This document shows positions 4,307-60,310 of a stretch of DNA of 63,784 nucleotides, one piece after another. Positions within the stretch are counted from its first letter, which is position 1; every line of letters begins with the position of its first letter. The stretch is from Candidatus Omnitrophota bacterium (GTDB lineage Bacteria; Omnitrophota; Gorgyraeia; Gygaellales; Profunditerraquicolaceae), in the NCBI GenBank assembly GCA_903852325.1, contig CAINQO010000045.1:1-63784 (forward strand), given 5' to 3'. The notes below the pieces were generated by a model. That model ran no database searches and was not told the DNA's origin. It saw only the letters and a program-made list of their open reading frames with translations. Both the position numbers and the translations under genes were made by a program.

Positions 4307-4336
4307 GTTACCAACTCTAGTTCTTTTTTACTTGTA
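4307..4336 (+). promoter_or_regulatory. bipartite box GTTACCA-N16-ACTTGTA, copy A (promoter-like)
   Basis: GTTACCA 4307-4313 and ACTTGTA 4330-4336 with exactly 16 nt between. The N16 ends in a T-run and the upstream flank is AT-rich (AATTTAA). Same box at 11468, 13597 and 15411. Confidence 0.5.
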
Positions 4337-4348
4337 TTGGTGTAAGGC

Positions 4349-4378
4349 TCGCAGAGAAGCGAAAAAAACATTGGCGTT
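4349..4378 (+). promoter_or_regulatory. leader RNA hexaloop hairpin pair (ANTAR-substrate-like), copy A
   Basis: P1 is TCGC-AGAGAA-GCGA (4349-4362). P2 is AAC-ATTGGC-GTT (4367-4378). The P2 loop and 3' arm (GGCGTT) form the 5' arm of the following terminator. Confidence 0.45.
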
Positions 4379-4407
4379 CCAAGATAAGGAACGCCATTTT
4401 TATTTTT
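4373..4407 (+). terminator. intrinsic terminator / attenuator in the leader of the APC-PII operon
   Basis: GGCGTTCC (4373-4380) pairs with GGAACGCC (4388-4395); 7-nt loop, then ATTTTTATTTTT. Confidence 0.75.
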
Positions 4408-4420
4408 AAACAGTTATCCT

Positions 4421-4440
4421 AGACGCAGGCGTCTTTTTTT
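4421..4440 (+). terminator. second terminator-like hairpin in the same leader
   Basis: AGACG-CAGG-CGTCT (or AGAC-GCAGGC-GTCT with a hexaloop) followed by a T-run. Confidence 0.55.
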
Positions 4441-4484
4441 GATCCTATGACGGAGAAAAAAAGGCGCTTTTTTATTTTATTAAC

Positions 4485-4519: not shown

Positions 4520-6373
4520 ATGGCTCAAGGGGATATGACTTTGGTTAAGCCTAAGCTCGGTTTATTAGGCGCCACGATGAACGCAATGGCTTTGATTGCT
4601 CCGGGAGCGTTTTTGTGGATTACTTATCAGTTGCAGGCTGCGGCTACCGCGCCAAGCGGGGCTTCGGTTGCCAGCGACATTTGGGCAGGGATCGTGCTGG
4701 CCTTGACCGTATGTTTTTTAACCGCACTCTCCTATGCGCAGTTGGCAAAAATCTATCCGGAAGCAGGTTTTGCCAGCTGTACTTATTTCGCCGAAAAAGC
4801 CTTTTTGGATGCGCGTAAGGAGAAAGTAAGCGGCCCGACCTCGATAGCGCGTTTTGCGAAACTGGCTACCGGATGGGCGGCGCATCTTTTTTATTGGGTT
4901 TATCCGGGAGTAATGGTGGCGATGATGGCCACCCTGATCGGATATATTTATAACCAGTTTACCGGCCAAACCCTGCCGCTATTAAACATGACTGTTATCT
5001 GCGTAATATTTACGGTAGTGACCGGTTATGTCGCCTACCGGGGCGTAACCGGATCAACGGTTATTGCTATCTGGATCAATATTATTCAATGGGTTACTTT
5101 GGTGATCTTTACGGGCTTGGCGATCTGGTACCGCCTGGCTAATCCCCAGCATGCCACGCAGTGGGTATTTAGCGGAGGATTGGATATAATTAAACCGCAC
5201 TCCTTGCAGGGTATCCTGGTCCAGTCGACGATAGCGATTTTAATTCTCGTGGGTTTTGAAAGCTGCACGGCTTTGGCCGCCGAAACCAAAGATCCCAAAA
5301 CCACCATTCCCAAGGCGATCATTATTTCACTTATTGTTCAGGGGGTGTTTGCTTATCTGTTCCAGTATTTTGGTGCCGGATTGATGCTTAGTGAAAAGCT
5401 GGCTAATGCCGCAGGGGCAACCGGCATGGCTGCCGCCGCCGCTTCGGGGGCTCCCATCGGTGACTTGGCTAAACTTATCGGGGAATCTTTAATTCCCGGC
5501 CTGGGATTCGGTTTAATGATTACTATGGCCATTACCGTGGCGATCGCGGTGATCGGAACAACCTTAAGCTGTATGAATACGGCGATGCGGGTATCTGCCG
5601 GCATGGCGGAAGACCGGGAGCTGCCTTCCGCATTAAGCTTTATTCATCTAAAACATATTACGCCGCATGTTTCACTGGCAATGTTGATCCTGGTTACTTC
5701 GGTAATCGGAGCTATCGGCGTGCGTTCAGTAGTAGGGCTTTTTGGCATTACCCTTGCCTCAAACCTGGGGACTTTTATACTCTACGGGCTTACCTGCATC
5801 TGGACGATCGTTGCTTTTAAAAATAGGGAGGATTTTAATCTTTTAAAGCACGGGATTATCCCCGTGCTGGGGCTGATCGCCAATGTGGTGATGACCGCTG
5901 GGATCCTTTATTTATATATTATCGGCAATGCCGATGCCAAGGCGGAAGCCACGATCTGTTTTACTATCGCCGGAGGCTGGGCCTTGATCAGCGTTATCTA
6001 TGTTGCGGTAACTACCGTGCGTAAAACTTACCGCTTAAAGATGGTTTCCGGGATGATCCGTCCGGAGCAGCTCAACATAGTCGTGCAGGCGCTGAAAGAA
6101 GATGATTGTATTTTAGGGATGACGGTGACAAAAGTTAAAGGATTCGGCCGGCAAAAAGGTCACCTTGACGGTGAGCCGCAGAACGATATAATCAGTTTTA
6201 TACCGAAAATAAGGCTGGATGTCGTAGTTAAGGAGTGGGATGTCCCGCAGATAATGGATATTATCGCCGAAGCGGCGCGCACCGGCAATGTCGGTGACGG
6301 CAAGATCTTCGTGACCGATGCCTCGGAAGCGATGCGCATCCGCACCGGAGAAAAAGGGATTTGGGCGGTATAA
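4520..6373 (+). CDS. APC-superfamily permease with in-frame C-terminal PII (GlnB-like) domain
   Basis: 617 aa. About 500 aa form a multi-TM APC-type permease. The last ~105 aa carry the PII hallmarks GFGRQKG (T-loop base) and TGNVGDGKIFV (B-loop). AAGGAGGG RBS upstream. Confidence 0.85.
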   Translation: MAQGDMTLVKPKLGLLGATMNAMALIAPGAFLWITYQLQAAATAPSGASVASDIWAGIVLALTVCFLTALSYAQLAKIYPEAGFASCTYFAEKAFLDARKEKVSGPTSIARFAKLATGWAAHLFYWVYPGVMVAMMATLIGYIYNQFTGQTLPLLNMTVICVIFTVVTGYVAYRGVTGSTVIAIWINIIQWVTLVIFTGLAIWYRLANPQHATQWVFSGGLDIIKPHSLQGILVQSTIAILILVGFESCTALAAETKDPKTTIPKAIIISLIVQGVFAYLFQYFGAGLMLSEKLANAAGATGMAAAAASGAPIGDLAKLIGESLIPGLGFGLMITMAITVAIAVIGTTLSCMNTAMRVSAGMAEDRELPSALSFIHLKHITPHVSLAMLILVTSVIGAIGVRSVVGLFGITLASNLGTFILYGLTCIWTIVAFKNREDFNLLKHGIIPVLGLIANVVMTAGILYLYIIGNADAKAEATICFTIAGGWALISVIYVAVTTVRKTYRLKMVSGMIRPEQLNIVVQALKEDDCILGMTVTKVKGFGRQKGHLDGEPQNDIISFIPKIRLDVVVKEWDVPQIMDIIAEAARTGNVGDGKIFVTDASEAMRIRTGEKGIWAV

Positions 6374-6386
6374 ACAGGCAGGTGAA

Positions 6387-6710
6387 ATGATGAAAAAGAT
6401 AGAATGCATTATCCGTTCGGAAAAACTGAAAAACCTGACCGATTCGCTCCTGGGGGTAGGGATCGGGGGGATGACCGTGAGTGAAGTGCGCGGTTTCGGG
6501 ATGCAGAGTACGCGGCCGGAGAGTTTCCTGTTTGTGCATAAAACTAAAATCGAGATTTATGCCCTTGATGATCAGGTAAACGAAATCCTGGCGGTAATTT
6601 TAAAAGAATGTTTTTCCGGAAAAGCCGGTGACGGCAAAATTGCCGTGATCCCGCTGGATAACTGTATCCGTATCCGCACCAAAGAGAAGATGGACAAAGC
6701 CATTATTTAA
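6387..6710 (+). CDS. divergent PII-like signal transduction protein (short T-loop)
   Basis: MMKKIECIIRSEKL... with GFGMQST in place of GFGRQKG; B-loop SGKAGDGKIAV retained. The track ORF start at 6318 overlaps the upstream gene, so ATG 6387/6390 is preferred. Confidence 0.75.
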   Translation: MMKKIECIIRSEKLKNLTDSLLGVGIGGMTVSEVRGFGMQSTRPESFLFVHKTKIEIYALDDQVNEILAVILKECFSGKAGDGKIAVIPLDNCIRIRTKEKMDKAII

Positions 6711-8462: not shown

Positions 8463-8490
8463 TTGACAGGGGTATTTTTTGTGCTATATT
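8463..8490 (+). promoter_or_regulatory. sigma70-type promoter of a long structured leader
   Basis: TTGACA (8463-8468), 16-nt spacer, TGc-TATATT (8485-8490, extended -10). Confidence 0.6.
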
Positions 8491-8496
8491 TTCTTG

Positions 8497-8689
8497 ATTA
8501 AGCTCAATCCCTTTTCGGGCGGTATTGACACCTGAGAAGAGCGAAAAGCCAGGTTTTCGATTTTTAATAGTCTCGGGGTGGATATCCGGAAATTTAGATT
8601 AGGTGTTATTCAACCTGAGCCCAACAACCGACCTCTTGAGAGCACGGTTCAAGAGGGGATCACCAGAGGACGTACACTCTGGTTTTTTA
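8497..8689 (+). promoter_or_regulatory. ~190-nt structured leader ending in a terminator; candidate riboswitch (possibly ydaO-type c-di-AMP class)
   Basis: Several hairpins plus a terminator sit directly upstream of a KimA-like transporter. GGGGTGGATATCC (8575-8587) and GAGCCCAACAACCGAC (8617-8632) loosely resemble conserved ydaO segments as I recall them. Confidence 0.35.
8662..8689 (+). terminator. intrinsic terminator closing the leader
   Basis: ACCAGAG-8 nt loop-CTCTGGT followed by TTTTTTAT. Confidence 0.75.
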
Positions 8690-8738: not shown

Positions 8739-10718
8739 ATGATCGTGGAACAAGTACCTTGGTATACAAAAATAAAAAATCTGGTTATGGGCGGCCCGCG
8801 GAATGTTCAGGACCAGCACATTTTTCATAATTTATCCCTGATCGCTTTTTTTGCCTGGGTGGGGCTGGGCGCGGACGGCTTATCCTCCTCCTGTTATGGA
8901 CCCCAGGAAGCATTTCTGGCGTTAAACGGGCACACCTACCTGAGTATATTCGTCGCCATCGGCACCGTATTGACCATCTTTATTATCTGTTCCAGTTATT
9001 CGCAGATCGTTGAACTTTTCCCTCACGGAGGAGGCGGATATTTGGTGGCCAGTAAGCTGCTTTCTCCGACCCTGGGGATGGTTTCCGGCTGCGCCCTGCT
9101 GATCGATTACGTATTAACGATTACGGTTTCAGTGGCCAGCGGGGCTGATGCCATCTTCAGCTTTCTGCCTCCAGAGTGGCTGGGCTACAGGCTTAGTTTT
9201 GCGATTTTTATCGTGTTGATCCTTATTTATTTAAACATGCGAGGGGTAAAGGAATCGGTTGTCCCTTTGATGCCGATTTTTCTTATCTTTGTGGTGACCC
9301 ATGTTTTTATCATTATTTATGCGATCGCCAAACACGCTTCCAATATGCCGGCCCTGGCCGTTTCTACGGTGAGGGATACTCAGGCTACCCTTTCCCAGGT
9401 GGGTTTTTTCGGTTTATTATTTCTGGTCTTGCGCGCTTACAGTATGGGCGCCGGTACTTTTACCGGGATCGAGGCGGTAAGTAACGGGGTGCCGATTTTA
9501 AGGGAGCCCAGGGTGCAGACGGCAAAAAAGACCATGCACTACATGGCCTGGTCCCTGTCTTTTGTTGTCTTAGGGTTGATGGTGGCCTATTTACTTTTCC
9601 AGATCACTCCGGTTGAAGGCAAGACGCTTAACGCCATACTTTTTGAGTCGGCTACCTCAAACTGGGGCTGGGGGAAGATTTTTGTATTGGTCGCTTTATT
9701 TTCCGAAGGGATGCTGCTTTTTGTCGCCGCGCAAACCGGGTTTTTAGACGGCCCCCGGGTATTGGCGAATATGGCTGCCGACCGCTGGTTTCCCACCCGG
9801 TTTGCCAGCTTAAGCGACCGTCTGGTGATCAAAAAAGGGATATTGATCATGGGCGGCCTGGCTGCTTTACTCATGATCCTTACTCACGCCTCGGTAAAAT
9901 TCCTAGTCGTCCTTTACAGTATTAACGTATTTATTACTTTTGTCCTTTCTCAGAGCGGGATGGTACGCCACTGGTGGAATTACCGTAAAAAAGCCAAAGA
10001 ATGGATAAGAAAGATACTGATCAATGGTGTCGGGTTAATTTTAAGCTTTTTTATCCTGATTTCGATGGTGATCATGAAGTTTACTGAAGGTGGATGGATT
10101 ACCCTGTTCATTACCTCTATACTGGCTGTTTTAGCTATCCTGACGAAAAGGCATTACTATGAAATCTCCAAGCAGCTGCGCCGGCTCAACAGCCTGGTCA
10201 GGAGCGTGGAATTCCAGGAAGGTATCGCCAGCGGCGCTACCAGCGTTCCTCCGTATGATCCTAAATCTAAGACTGCGGTTTTAATGGTCAATGGTTTTAA
10301 CGGGGTGGGGCTGCATACGCTTTTTGGGGTAATCCGGCTGTTCGGAGGGGTATTTAAGAATTTTATTTTTCTGGAAGTGGGGATGGTGGATGCGGGGAAC
10401 TTTAAAGGCGTCACCGAAATGGAAGGCTTAAAGACCCAGGTGGATACGGATTTAAAACGCTACGTGAGTTTTATGAACCAGCAGGGTTATTTTGCCAAAG
10501 GGGTATCGGTGATCGGGGTAGATGTGGTCGATCAGGTGGCCCAGATCACTCCCCAGATCGTCGCAGAGTTCCCGAATGCGGTGTTTTTCGGCGGCCAGCT
10601 CTTATTTACCAAGGATTCCCTGTTTGCGCCGTTGTTCCATAACTACGCGGTATTCTCGATCCAGAAAAAACTGTACAGGCAGGGTGTCCCTTTTGTGATT
10701 TTGCCGATCAGGATTTAA
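8739..10718 (+). CDS. APC-superfamily transporter with cytoplasmic C-terminal domain, KimA (K+/H+ symporter)-like
   Basis: About 660 aa; N-terminal GADGLSSSCYGPQEAF motif typical of this APC subfamily, about 12 TM segments, ~200 aa soluble tail. The start is uncertain (ATG 8739, GTG 8745; the track gives 8715). Confidence 0.7.
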   Translation: MIVEQVPWYTKIKNLVMGGPRNVQDQHIFHNLSLIAFFAWVGLGADGLSSSCYGPQEAFLALNGHTYLSIFVAIGTVLTIFIICSSYSQIVELFPHGGGGYLVASKLLSPTLGMVSGCALLIDYVLTITVSVASGADAIFSFLPPEWLGYRLSFAIFIVLILIYLNMRGVKESVVPLMPIFLIFVVTHVFIIIYAIAKHASNMPALAVSTVRDTQATLSQVGFFGLLFLVLRAYSMGAGTFTGIEAVSNGVPILREPRVQTAKKTMHYMAWSLSFVVLGLMVAYLLFQITPVEGKTLNAILFESATSNWGWGKIFVLVALFSEGMLLFVAAQTGFLDGPRVLANMAADRWFPTRFASLSDRLVIKKGILIMGGLAALLMILTHASVKFLVVLYSINVFITFVLSQSGMVRHWWNYRKKAKEWIRKILINGVGLILSFFILISMVIMKFTEGGWITLFITSILAVLAILTKRHYYEISKQLRRLNSLVRSVEFQEGIASGATSVPPYDPKSKTAVLMVNGFNGVGLHTLFGVIRLFGGVFKNFIFLEVGMVDAGNFKGVTEMEGLKTQVDTDLKRYVSFMNQQGYFAKGVSVIGVDVVDQVAQITPQIVAEFPNAVFFGGQLLFTKDSLFAPLFHNYAVFSIQKKLYRQGVPFVILPIRI

Positions 10719-10751
10719 GTTAAAGAATAGAATTCATAACCATAAATCCTA

Positions 10752-10779
10752 TTGACAAATCCTTAAAATGTGGTAATCT
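10752..10779 (+). promoter_or_regulatory. sigma70-type promoter of the sigma-factor leader
   Basis: TTGACA (10752-10757), 16-nt spacer, TGg-TAATCT (10774-10779). Confidence 0.6.
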
Positions 10780-10787
10780 TTAAGTAA

Positions 10788-10818
10788 TACAGCGTTGTAG
10801 CAAAGACAGTGAAGTCTT
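10788..10818 (+). promoter_or_regulatory. dual hexaloop hairpins (ANTAR-substrate-like), sigma leader module 1
   Basis: P1 is TAC-AGCGTT-GTA (10788-10799) and P2 is AAGAC-AGTGAA-GTCTT (10803-10818). Both loops have A at position 1 and G at position 4. The P2 3' arm is part of the terminator 5' arm. Confidence 0.55.
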
Positions 10819-10851
10819 CTGGCAGTAATATCGCCCAGAAGGCTTTTTTTT
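10813..10851 (+). terminator. intrinsic terminator / attenuator 1 upstream of the sigma factor gene
   Basis: AGTCTTCTGG pairs with CCAGAAGGCT (one G-U pair), 12-nt loop, T8 run. Confidence 0.8.
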
Positions 10852-10886
10852 CGCCAAAATTGGCGAAGTTCCGGACTAAGGCGTCC
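10852..10886 (+). promoter_or_regulatory. hexaloop hairpin pair, sigma leader module 2
   Basis: CGCC-AAAATT-GGCG (10852-10865) and GGAC-TAAGGC-GTCC (10873-10886). The latter overlaps the next terminator stem. Confidence 0.4.
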
Positions 10887-10928
10887 TTTATCCAAAGAAG
10901 TAAACACGGGTAAAGGATTTTTTATTTT
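10884..10928 (+). terminator. terminator-like hairpin 2 upstream of the sigma factor gene
   Basis: TCCTTTA pairs with TAAAGGA, 20-nt loop, TTTTTTATTTT. Confidence 0.5.
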
Positions 10929-10943
10929 AAGGGGACTATAAAC

Positions 10944-11468
10944 ATGAGTTTTGAAGAGTTACACCAAAAATTATCGCCGACCATTAAAAGGATCGCCTAC
11001 CGGCTAAACGGGCATTACCGGTCTTTTAGCCATGAAGACCTTTACCAGGAGGCAACTATCCATCTTTGGAGTAATTTCTGTAAAGGTGTCCTTAGCGATA
11101 AGACCGACAGTTATATCCTCCAGGGTTGTTATTTCCACCTGAAAAACTATATCCGCAAGGTAAATGAGCGCTCCAATGTGATCAGTATTGACGCGACATT
11201 AAGCGCGCATGAAGATTCTACCGTTGAGGATGTCCTGGGCCAGTATTGGGCTTGTGATGATTGCCGGAGCCAACTGCACGATAAATTTTTAGTGCAAAGC
11301 ATCAGGAATAACGGTTTTGATCCGAAAGAAAAAAGGCTGCTGGATTATTTCAGCCAGGGGTTAACCACCAGGGATATCGGCAAGCGTATGGGGATATCCC
11401 ATGTCAGCGTAGTGAAGCTGATGCAAAAGGTCAGGGTCAAGGCCCGCAAGCATCTGGATAAAATTTAG
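10944..11468 (+). CDS. sigma-70 family (ECF-like, regions 2 and 4 only) RNA polymerase sigma factor
   Basis: 174 aa; region 2 (EDLYQEATIHLWSNF) and region 4 HTH (LTTRDIGKRMGISHVSVVKLMQKVRVKARKHL); no adjacent anti-sigma gene. Confidence 0.8.
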   Translation: MSFEELHQKLSPTIKRIAYRLNGHYRSFSHEDLYQEATIHLWSNFCKGVLSDKTDSYILQGCYFHLKNYIRKVNERSNVISIDATLSAHEDSTVEDVLGQYWACDDCRSQLHDKFLVQSIRNNGFDPKEKRLLDYFSQGLTTRDIGKRMGISHVSVVKLMQKVRVKARKHLDKI

Positions 11469-11497
11469 TTACCAGATCCGGGTATTTTTTACTTGTA
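11468..11497 (+). promoter_or_regulatory. bipartite box GTTACCA-N16-ACTTGTA, copy B
   Basis: GTTACCA 11468-11474 (its G is the last base of the sigma gene stop codon) and ACTTGTA 11491-11497. Confidence 0.5.
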
Positions 11498-11534
11498 CTC
11501 TTGTAATAATCTAAGTCCCCTTTAAAAAGGGCAG

Positions 11535-11568
11535 ACACAGTGATGTGTAAGATGTAAACATAGGCGTT
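11535..11568 (+). promoter_or_regulatory. leader RNA hexaloop hairpin pair, copy B
   Basis: P1 is ACAC-AGTGAT-GTGT (11535-11548) and P2 is AAC-ATAGGC-GTT (11557-11568). P2 overlaps the terminator 5' arm. Confidence 0.45.
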
Positions 11569-11595
11569 CTAGAGATAGAGCGCCTTTTTATTTTT
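11562..11595 (+). terminator. intrinsic terminator / attenuator, leader B
   Basis: AGGCGTTCT pairs with AGAGCGCCT (one G-U pair), hexaloop AGAGAT, then TTTTATTTTT. Confidence 0.8.
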
Positions 11596-11630
11596 CCCGG
11601 ACCCAGCGGGTTTTATGAAGGCGGTATCTG

Positions 11631-11807
11631 ATGATTGACGGAAAACTGATCGATAAATTGAGCCAATTAAAGGAAGCCAGGGGATATACTTTATATGATT
11701 TATCCAGAAAGCTGGATATTCAGGTCACGACCATTGAGCGCTGGTTTAAGACCAAACGCATCAATAAGGTTTACGCGCAGCTGGTTAGGGATAAGTTAAG
11801 TATTTAA
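11631..11807 (+). CDS. small XRE-like HTH protein (58 aa), below the ORF-track length cutoff
   Basis: Hand translation gives MIDGKLIDKLSQLKEARGYTLYDLSRKLDIQVTTIERWFKTKRINKVYAQLVRDKLSI. The YTLYDLSRKLDIQVTTIERW stretch looks like a helix-turn-helix. The RBS is weak. Confidence 0.45.
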   Translation: MIDGKLIDKLSQLKEARGYTLYDLSRKLDIQVTTIERWFKTKRINKVYAQLVRDKLSI

Positions 11808-13596: not shown

Positions 13597-13626
13597 GTTA
13601 CCAGAGTCGGTGTTTTTTTACTTGTA
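13597..13626 (+). promoter_or_regulatory. bipartite box GTTACCA-N16-ACTTGTA, copy C
   Basis: GTTACCA 13597-13603, ACTTGTA 13620-13626; the AATTTAA upstream flank matches copy A. Confidence 0.5.
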
Positions 13627-15410: not shown

Positions 15411-15440
15411 GTTACCAGAACCCCCGTTTCTTTACTTGTA
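15411..15440 (+). promoter_or_regulatory. bipartite box GTTACCA-N16-ACTTGTA, copy D
   Basis: GTTACCA 15411-15417, ACTTGTA 15434-15440. Confidence 0.5.
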
Positions 15441-33679: not shown

Positions 33680-33688
33680 AAGTGCAGA

Positions 33689-33824
33689 TAAACTCTAAAC
33701 TCAAAACACTAAACTCTAAACAAATCCAAAATCCAAAACCTGAAACCCTAAGGTTTCGTTTGGAATTTTGGATTTTGAGTTTTGGGTTTGTTTAGGATTT
33801 AGGGTTTAGGATTTAGGGTTTTTA
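33689..33824 (+). repeat. ~135-nt imperfect long hairpin built from degenerate heptads (copy 1 of a repeat family)
   Basis: A/C-rich arm TAAACTCTAAACTCAAAACACTAAACTCTAAACAAATCCAAAATCCAAAACC, centre GAAACC-ctaa-GGTTTC, G/T-rich arm ...TTTGGGTTTGTTTAGGATTTAGGGTTTAGGATTTAGGGTTT. A homologous copy lies at 60168-60301. Confidence 0.85.
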
Positions 33825-33830
33825 AAAATT

Positions 33831-58788: not shown

Positions 58789-58791
58789 TTT

Positions 58792-58914
58792 GAGTAGTGA
58801 GGGTTAGGGTGAGGAGCGGGTTAGGTGGCGTGAATGAGTAGTTAGTTTTGCCTCACTACCAATCCCCACTACGTAACTCACTACTTTACCTAATCCACAT
58901 CCACACTACTCATC
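58792..58914 (+). repeat. imperfect long hairpin with G/T-rich left arm and C/A-rich right arm
   Basis: GAGTAGTGAGGGTTAGGGTGAGG...TTAGGTGG on the left faces ...TTACCTAATCCACATCCACACTACTCATC on the right. Complementarity is partial (e.g. GAGTAGTG with CACTACTC, TTAGGT with ACCTAA). Confidence 0.45.
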
Positions 58915-58944
58915 TCGGCATCAGGGTATTTTTTTATTGGAGGG

Positions 58945-58972
58945 TTGACTTTACGGTAAATTGTGCTATAGT
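58945..58972 (+). promoter_or_regulatory. sigma70-type promoter of carA
   Basis: TTGACT (58945-58950), 16-nt spacer, TGc-TATAGT (58967-58972). Confidence 0.6.
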
Positions 58973-58977
58973 TATTC

Positions 58978-58991
58978 AAACAAAGGCGTTT
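58978..58991 (+). promoter_or_regulatory. hexaloop hairpin competing with the carA leader terminator
   Basis: AAAC-AAAGGC-GTTT; same AC-NNNGGC-GT core as the nitrogen-operon leaders; overlaps the terminator 5' arm. Confidence 0.4.
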
Positions 58992-59025
58992 AGGGGCCGC
59001 AATTTCGGCACTAAGCGCTTTTTTT
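58985..59025 (+). terminator. intrinsic terminator / attenuator in the carA leader
   Basis: GGCGTTTAG pairs with CTAAGCGCT (two G-U pairs), enclosing GCCG-CAATTT-CGGC; a T7 run follows. Confidence 0.65.
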
Positions 59026-60164: not shown

Positions 60165-60167
60165 TGT

Positions 60168-60301
60168 TAAACTCTAAACCCGAAATCCTAAACTCTAAAC
60201 AAACCCAAAAAATCAAAACACAAAACTCAAAACGTTAGATTAAAAATTTGAGTTTTGGATTTTGGATTTGTTTAGGATTTAGAGTTTAGTGTTTAGGGTT
60301 T
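60168..60301 (+). repeat. ~135-nt imperfect long hairpin, copy 2 of the heptad-repeat family
   Basis: Starts TAAACTCTAAAC and ends TTTAGGGTTT like copy 1. The right arm TTTTGGATTTGTTTAGGATTTAGAGTTTAGTGTTTAGGGTTT is near-identical to 33781-33822. Confidence 0.85.
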
Positions 60302-60310
60302 GAAAAAAAT

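Follow-up and report, generated by a model that had tools for sequence, protein, structure and literature searches.

A sigma factor gene of Omnitrophota behind two predicted hexaloop attenuators, a candidate target of GAF-ANTAR antitermination

The stretch of DNA analysed here, 63,784 nucleotides (nt) of a Candidatus Omnitrophota bacterium (hereafter 'the window', whose positions serve as coordinates throughout), contains a gene for a sigma-70-family protein. We propose that positions 10752-10943, which comprise the promoter and the leader of this gene, probably act as two protein-dependent attenuators in series. Our confidence is greater than this for the first module and smaller for the second as a gate under the control of an ANTAR protein. 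A first-pass annotation of the same DNA had listed most of the elements given below, and reading the sequence again places each of them where it had been put.

10752-10779, + strand: sigma-70-type promoter, with a -35 box TTGACA (10752-10757), a 16-nt spacer and a TG-extended -10 box TAATCT (10774-10779; TGg-TAATCT from 10771)
10788-10799, + strand: hairpin P1, TAC[AGCGTT]GTA (TAC 10788-10790, loop 10791-10796, GTA 10797-10799), a 3-bp stem with a hexaloop that has A at its first position (A1) and G at its fourth (G4)
between 10799 and 10803, + strand: 3-nt linker GCA between P1 and P2, from reading the sequence
10803-10818, + strand: hairpin P2, hereafter hairpin A, AAGAC[AGTGAA]GTCTT (AAGAC 10803-10807, loop 10808-10813, GTCTT 10814-10818), candidate antiterminator of module 1
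10813-10851, + strand: predicted terminator T1, in which AGTCTTCTGG (10813-10822) pairs with CCAGAAGGCT (10835-10844), with one G-U pair, followed by T8 (10844-10851)
10850-10867, + strand: spacer hairpin TTCGCC[AAAATT]GGCGAA (CGCC[AAAATT]GGCG at 10852-10865), not conserved
10873-10886, + strand: hairpin B, GGAC[TAAGGC]GTCC, candidate antiterminator of module 2, from sequence and comparison
10883-10928, + strand: predicted terminator T2, in which GTCCTTTATCC (10883-10893) pairs with GGGTAAAGGAT (10908-10918) around a 14-nt loop, followed by T6-A-T4 (10918-10928)
10930-10934, + strand: ribosome-binding site AGGGG, preceding the ATG at 10944
10944-11468, + strand: sigma-70-family gene of 174 amino acids, from NCBIfam and structure-profile matches

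The 5' arm of T1 takes in the 3' arm of P2 and the loop base before it (10813-10818 shared), and the 5' arm of T2 reuses positions 10883-10886 of hairpin B. In silico, the sigma gene lies behind two successive predicted terminators, as the first-pass annotation had described, each of which is mutually exclusive with the hexaloop hairpin upstream of it. This overlap between second hairpin and terminator is found in all the relatives compared (33/33 for A and T1, 54/54 for B and T2), with covariation in both terminators. The leader has a folding z-score of -4.4 against shuffled sequences, and both T1 and T2 are present in its minimum-energy fold. The predicted folding energy of T1 is -14.9 to -18.5 kcal/mol, compared with -3.8 kcal/mol for P1 and hairpin A together (hairpin A folded alone has -3.9 kcal/mol), and that of T2 is -12.9 to -13.2 kcal/mol, compared with -5.3 kcal/mol for hairpin B alone. 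As both terminators are favoured over the small hairpins in these predictions, termination would be the default outcome, and the hairpins would need outside help to prevail. The leader is base-for-base identical in two other, independent metagenome assemblies and is therefore not an assembly artefact. The population that carries it is found in ENA ERZ27313066 and JGI 3300029442.

The targets of ANTAR proteins have been described as pairs of hexaloop hairpins that carry A1 and G4 and of which the second overlaps a terminator (Ramesh et al. 2012, PMC3369931). Module 1 has these features, namely two adjacent stem-loops, A1/G4 hexaloops and the overlap with a terminator. We compared it with 80 related loci (L001-L080, 569 kb) from Omnitrophota and some Syntrophorhabdales. 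The usual order in the Omnitrophota loci is TTGACA-16/17-TAnnnT, P1, hairpin A, T1, hairpin B, T2 and the start codon. In an alignment of 33 leaders, the stems of P1 and hairpin A are 97% paired and invariant in sequence. Of these leaders, 32 have G4 in the P1 loop and 32 in the loop of hairpin A. A1 is found in 30 of the P1 loops and in 24 of the loops of hairpin A, eight others of which start with G. The AGAC of the 5' arm of hairpin A is invariant despite lying outside T1. As for T1, 93% of its cells in the alignment are paired, and six of its 12 pairs have changed on both sides; none of 500 shuffles reached its covariation score, and pairing falls to 44-60% when the partner is slid by one to three columns. 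Module 1 is thus, as far as sequence comparison goes, a conserved dual-hexaloop antiterminator/terminator switch. The earlier description of this module as a dual-hexaloop arrangement, with T1 reusing the 3' arm of P2, agrees with the ANTAR definition and with conservation across the phylum, apart from the 3-nt linker that is discussed below.

Module 2 called for a different treatment, since the 3' arms of T2 were not in register in MAFFT alignments and pairs could not be counted column by column. We used instead a table of per-sequence RNAfold predictions anchored on the gapless 5' arm. In this table, which is biased towards pairing by construction, all 54 leaders have a hairpin, of -13 to -32 kcal/mol, that precedes a T-run and contains the 3' arm of hairpin B, usually with loop bases 2-6 as well. 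The distal stem of T2 (positions 11-18) is made up of many differing pair types among these leaders. The GAC/GTC of hairpin B is invariant in the leaders examined, with the GAC of the 5' arm lying outside T2. All 54 loops have G4, 38 have G at position 5 and 47 have C at position 6. G4 and the closing C-G pair are invariant in the conserved leader hairpins, apart from the single departures from G4 in module 1. Loops of the same NNNGGC type are found at positions 4367, 11557, 15449 and 58978 of the window, and its other terminator-overlapping hairpins read AAC[ATTGGC]GTT, AAC[ATAGGC]GTT, GAAC[TGAGGC]GTTC and AAAC[AAAGGC]GTTT. Glutamine synthetase leaders carry a lone hairpin of this kind, ACTTGTAATTAGAGAAC[AGAGGC]GTTCTGG, right after the promoter-like motif described below. 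Going by these sequences, hairpin B looks like the standard second hairpin of the regulon, here without a first.

The first-pass annotation had seen such a first hairpin in CGCC[AAAATT]GGCG. We rejected this candidate: it has no G4, and in its predicted fold 6-7 bp close a tetraloop. Only a few relatives (including L013, L016 and L056) have CGCC/GGCG hairpins, their loops ranging from 6 to 9 nt. In most relatives the T-run of T1 runs straight into hairpin B with nothing between; by this comparison the element is a lineage-specific insert. Of the second module as originally drawn, GGAC[TAAGGC]GTCC and T2 are conserved (54/54), and its description as a dual-hexaloop unit has to be given up along with the CGCC hairpin.

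Five of the related loci (L031, L036, L046, L047 and L055) have a palindrome resembling repetitive extragenic palindromic elements (TTGCCCACAAGGGCACACCGGCC...GGCCGGGTG) inserted between T1 and hairpin B or after T2. Insertions between T1 and B indicate that the spacing of the two modules is free to vary, and the distance from A to B ranges from about 50 to 106 nt.

A candidate for the protein that would act on these hairpins is encoded upstream in the window.

1885-2616, + strand: GAF-ANTAR one-component protein of 243 amino acids, candidate antiterminator (Pfam GAF_2, 2e-24; ANTAR, 5e-17)

In EutV, the hexaloop is bound by Arg142, Lys149, Tyr164 and Met172; G4 is the contacted base, on which Tyr164 stacks, and A1 has no specific contact (Walshaw et al. 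2022, PMC8934654). The equivalents of these four residues are all kept in the GAF-ANTAR protein when it is aligned to EutV (6wsh). A tblastn search with the window proteins found a GAF-ANTAR orthologue in the fetched flank of 43 of the 80 loci, usually immediately upstream of the sigma gene. The usual gene order is Lrp, aminotransferase, GAF-ANTAR and sigma, with the leader within the gap of about 190 nt, and an alternative order is GAF-ANTAR, nadE and sigma. In L034, L052, L062 and L080, sigma directly follows nadE without a leader, and the tandem of A and then B sits ahead of nadE. The best curated matches of the GAF domain are the N-terminal GAF domains of NifA and PtsP, far under the cut-offs of those models, which is only a hint that it may sense nitrogen or carbon status. 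The ANTAR logic proposed in the first-pass annotation is supported in silico by the presence of the gene and by the conserved contact residues, and has to be amended for module 2, which is not a dual unit.

Expression of the sigma factor might then be controlled as follows. The housekeeping-type promoter would start transcription near position 10786, just ahead of P1. By default the nascent RNA would fold into T1, yielding an RNA of about 65 nt, and any transcript that reads through would fold into T2 and end at about 140 nt. Once the GAF-ANTAR protein is active, presumably under nitrogen limitation by way of its NifA-like GAF domain, a dimer would bind the G4 hexaloops of P1 and hairpin A and hold hairpin A closed, withholding GTCTT from T1. 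GAF-ANTAR would then bind the single G4 hexaloop of hairpin B and withhold GTCC from T2. Only transcripts that pass both gates would encode the sigma factor, and the arrangement in series would multiply stringency and keep basal expression low.

Several points weigh against this model. The -10 box TAATCT agrees with TATAAT at only three of six positions, so that the earlier label of a canonical promoter was too strong, although the arrangement itself is kept: TTGACA-16/17-TAnnnT stands at the equivalent place in most related loci (most of L001-L031). A consensus scanner listed neither the promoter nor T1 and T2 in the leader. It missed the promoter because of this -10 box and the terminators because their loops exceed 8 nt, its limit; these omissions, explained by the limits of the scanner, are no evidence against the three elements. 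P1 and hairpin A show no covariation, being invariant in sequence, and their pairing is thus backed by conservation and complementarity. EutV targets have linkers of 5-12 nt, and linkers of 3 and 14 nt were inactive (PMC3369931). With a 5-bp stem of hairpin A, the linker between P1 and A measures 3 nt here, below that range, and 2-5 nt in relatives; were pairing confined to the invariant GAC/GTC, it would come to 5-7 nt. In module 2, hairpin B lacks a conserved partner, and the first position of its loop, off the published consensus, is T in 41 of 54 leaders and A in three. For a lone hairpin B it also counts that antitermination by EutV in vitro required both hairpins, properly spaced (PMC8934654). 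T2 of this leader is the weakest of the set, with its 14-nt loop and about -13 kcal/mol. Finally, nitrogen limitation is a presumed signal for the GAF-ANTAR protein.

Some of these points would be accommodated if only module 1 were controlled by the ANTAR protein, and if hairpin B and T2 formed a constitutive partial terminator, a unit read by another factor, or one half of a long-range or ancestral pair with hairpin A. The missing partner of B, the T at the start of its loop and the requirement of EutV for two correctly spaced hairpins all speak for this alternative, as do the Syntrophorhabdales-type loci, where hairpin A lacks a terminator and B with T2 is the only terminating unit; the latter suggests that A and B perhaps once cooperated. 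We nevertheless consider it unlikely. The GAC of the 5' arm of B is invariant despite lying outside the terminator, and G4 is kept in every leader. Loops of the NNNGGC type close the terminator-overlapping hairpin of other leaders of the window behind a canonical A1/G4 P1 (4349-4378 and 11535-11568), and this is the type of site to which GnfR has been found experimentally to bind (PMC2995071). The lone B-type hairpin of the glutamine synthetase leaders points the same way, as does the variable distance between A and B. It also speaks for the main model that each ANTAR dimer binds one hexaloop, and the minimal site has been redefined as a single hexaloop (PMC8934654).

As for the Syntrophorhabdales-type loci themselves, a variant leader is found about 100-200 nt upstream of the sigma match in L057, L060, L061, L063 and similar loci labelled 'delta proteobacterium' or Syntrophorhabdales. 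It contains AAGAC[ATTGAN]GTCTT, for which there is an alternative downstream partner, AAAGAC, but no T-run. Some of these loci then have a third hexaloop hairpin, AAC[GCTGAA]GTT, before GGAC[TNGGNC]GTCC with the sole terminator. These variant leaders suggest that T1 of Omnitrophota may have evolved from a non-terminating alternative helix.

T1 and T2 could also be ordinary tandem terminators or insulators of upstream transcription, with the hexaloops incidental. Pairs of A1/G4 hexaloops on 3-bp stems are indeed frequent by chance, with 22 in the window, mostly within open reading frames, and the lack of covariation in P1 and A fits this explanation as well. We find it very improbable all the same. 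The terminators lie downstream of a conserved promoter and right before the start of the sigma gene, and an unconditional stop there would silence a gene that is 74-91% conserved across the closest 120 homologue clusters. TAC, AAGAC, GGAC and the G4 of the loops are invariant outside the terminators, whereas terminator loops and distal stems vary. Composite units, defined as a G4-hexaloop hairpin whose 3' arm is absorbed by a terminator of at least 8 bp with a T-run, number nine in the window, and each of them lies between genes on the + strand; 30 dinucleotide shuffles gave a mean of 1.07 and a maximum of 3, and the enrichment is about 8-fold. In the related loci, 197 hexaloop-terminator units lie on the gene strand ahead of nitrogen genes and three on the opposite strand, and their closing pair is C-G in 165 of 186. 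The unit scan placed those of the window ahead of the following genes.

4367 and 4421, + strand: permease-PII fusion gene
10803 and 10873, + strand: sigma gene
11557, + strand: unit of a helix-turn-helix (HTH) protein gene and amtB
15449, + strand: glutamine synthetase III (GSIII) gene
58978, + strand: carA
55454/55459, + strand: unknown gene

A leader read by other means, such as a riboswitch or another RNA-binding protein, is hardly credible either: the linker length and the U at position 1 of hairpin B do differ from the published ANTAR consensus, and the link to the GAF-ANTAR protein is drawn from sequence, but Rfam gave no match for the whole window at the gathering score and only chance-level ones for 10700-11700 with E-values allowed up to 10 (E of 2.4 or more), the conserved hairpins, two or three in number and 12-16 nt long, are too small to form a ligand pocket, and the elements fit the ANTAR definition and co-occur with the ANTAR gene across two phyla. 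Attenuation by a leader peptide was considered and rejected, as the leader holds no open reading frame on the sense strand, and the sole one found in it is a 52-codon antisense frame (10749-10907).

The gene behind the two attenuators of our model encodes, by its profile matches, a divergent member of the sigma-70 family. Its 174-residue product matches NCBIfam TIGR02937 (sigma70-ECF) over residues 3-171 with 46.4 bits, for a cut-off of 42.9. Pfam matches stay below the gathering thresholds (Sigma70_r2, 23.3 against 24 bits; GerE, 21.9 against 23.5), and no Sigma70_r4 match was listed. A search of the PDB with the single sequence gave weak matches (best E = 0.0014), and a profile of 17 homologues matched chains of sigma B, FliA, WhiG and sigma H (best E = 8e-10). 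There are 923 sigma homologues, from Omnitrophota wherever named. The gene is part of a nitrogen-assimilation region, with the gene order below.

up to and including the sigma-like gene: Lrp, aminotransferase, GAF-ANTAR, NAD synthetase, permease-PII, porin, PII, permease, sigma-like gene
after the sigma-like gene: HTH protein of 58 amino acids, amtB, PII, amtB, PII, GSIII, Fis-type HTH protein, gltB, gltD

The permease-PII gene (4520-6373) encodes an amino-acid permease with a PII domain fused to its C-terminus, and a small PII-like open reading frame follows (6389-6710). At least five PII-type domains are encoded in the 63-kb window.

A second conserved signal of the locus is a promoter-like motif, a copy of which starts at the last base of the sigma stop codon.

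11468-11497, + strand: promoter-like motif GTTACC-N17-ACTTGTA
4307-4336, 13597-13626 and 15411-15440, + strand: further copies of the motif, from a sequence scan

In full the motif reads GTTACC(A)-N17-ACTTGTA, with a T-rich end of the spacer and an A-rich upstream flank. The copies in the window precede the permease-PII, HTH/amtB, amtB and GSIII genes. The strict motif has 93 matches in the 569 kb of related loci, where 0.05 were expected by chance; every match lies on the gene strand and has the 17-nt spacing. The genes downstream are amtB (53), GSIII (11), PII, porin and HTH58. Promoters resembling TTGACA/TATAAT, rather than this motif, precede the sigma gene itself, the Lrp/GAF-ANTAR operon and carA. 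Like the motif, the presumed DNA-reading segments of the sigma protein, DKTDSYILQGCYFHLKNYIRK and the C-terminal HTH, show no variation from Omnitrophota to Syntrophorhabdales. These observations suggest that the motif is a candidate promoter read by the sigma factor of the locus.

It is tempting to join the two signals into a cascade, which we put forward tentatively, as a possibility rather than an expectation. A constitutively produced GAF-ANTAR protein would open the two attenuators, and the sigma factor made in consequence would act on the GTTACC-N17-ACTTGTA promoters of the amtB, PII, GSIII and permease genes. Most of these transcripts have predicted ANTAR attenuators too, in some cases with just one hexaloop, and the circuit would amount to a coherent feed-forward AND gate in place of control of the NtrC/sigma-54 type. 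If so, lone U1/G4 hexaloops would be able to support co-transcriptional antitermination, and this would be an undescribed nitrogen-control circuit common to Omnitrophota and some Syntrophorhabdales.

ANTAR targets lie mainly ahead of the genes for PII, AmtB, glutamine synthetase, glutamate synthase and nitrogenase (PMC3369931). With attenuators of nitrogen genes already known, the attenuator as such was to be expected in a new phylum. A sigma factor as the gated gene, in a phylum-wide example, would place a post-initiation switch atop a regulon of transcription initiation. No report of an ANTAR-gated sigma factor came up in a limited literature search, and 'sigma' is not mentioned in the supplements of Ramesh et al. 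2012; precedents may exist. The 54 independent leaders, together with the glutamine synthetase leaders, provide natural evidence that a lone G4/U1 hexaloop may be under selection as an antiterminator, which bears on the single hexaloop as minimal ANTAR site. Finally, the motif is a testable candidate promoter for an uncharacterised sigma family of uncultivated organisms and would let nitrogen regulons be read from metagenomes.

Other leaders of the window deserve mention. That of the permease-PII gene (4349-4480) has a first attenuator composed of tcgc[AGAGAA]gcga and aac[ATTGGC]gtt with a terminator; in the second, agac[GCAGGC]gtct is combined with a separate terminator. A tandem arrangement is thus seen outside the sigma gene as well. 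Upstream of carA (59073), a sigma-70-type promoter with TTGACT, a 16-nt spacer and a TG-extended TATAGT (58945-58972) is directly followed by aaac[AAAGGC]gttt (58978-58991), which overlaps a terminator. Judging from its sequence, this region (58945-59010) is a lone hexaloop attenuator on the gene of a glutamine-consuming enzyme. Between 8463 and 8714, a sigma-70-type promoter with TTGACA, 16 nt and TATATT (8463-8490) precedes a leader of about 200 nt. At its end stands a terminator, CCAGAG...CTCTGG and T6 (8663-8688), ahead of an amino-acid permease gene (8715). This leader, in which neither a hexaloop unit nor an Rfam match was found, may be a different kind of attenuator. Lastly, long imperfect inverted repeats with arms of about 60 nt lie at 33680-33830, 58789-58930 and 60165-60310, at operon ends and between carA and carB. 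They are made up of CTAAAC(C/T) and TTTAGGG-like heptamers, fold with -43 to -50 kcal/mol on either strand, and may be long terminators or a family of repeat elements.

Among known systems, the eut leaders of Enterococcus faecalis, which are bound by EutV, share with the sigma leader two short A1/G4 hexaloop hairpins closed by a C-G pair, the second exclusive with an intrinsic terminator, as well as an ANTAR protein encoded nearby and a theme of nitrogen metabolism. They differ by their linkers (5-12 nt, as opposed to 3 nt here and 2-5 nt in relatives) and by their regulator, a phosphorylated REC-ANTAR protein rather than a one-component GAF-ANTAR protein. Moreover, in our locus the gated gene is that of a sigma factor, and a single-hairpin U1 unit is added in the same leader.

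In Geobacter sulfurreducens, the REC-ANTAR protein GnfR binds RNA with CAGGCAANGGCGCC, that is, GGC[AANGGC]GCC, overlapping the terminators of nifH, glnK and amtB (Ueki and Lovley 2010, PMC2995071). In the window, hairpin B and the other P2-type hairpins resemble these sites in having an NNNGGC hexaloop closed by C-G and overlapping the terminators of nitrogen genes, with stems of GAC/GTC or AAC/GTT where the GnfR sites have GGC/GCC. The likeness of hairpin B to a GnfR site is, by sequence, one of resemblance and not of orthology, the regulators having GAF and REC domains, respectively. In both systems antitermination would be layered onto a nitrogen-specific initiation system. However, initiation in Geobacter requires sigma-54 together with GnfL/GnfM, and what is induced there is the ANTAR protein itself, whereas in our locus a housekeeping-type promoter precedes the ANTAR operon and the gating would apply to the sigma factor.

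The leaders of nasF, nirBD and amiE, controlled by NasR (a NIT-ANTAR protein), NasT and AmiR, likewise combine a one-component, ligand-sensing or partner-controlled ANTAR protein with a hexaloop hairpin upstream of a terminator, in the service of nitrogen assimilation. Their regulators have other sensor domains, and they have one attenuator per leader, with enzymes or transporters as targets. As for two independent termination gates before one gene, these are familiar from tandem T-boxes and tandem thiamine pyrophosphate riboswitches, in which they are expected to give a sharper response and a lower leak. Those RNAs sense tRNAs or ligands themselves, whereas in the sigma leader one protein would read both gates.

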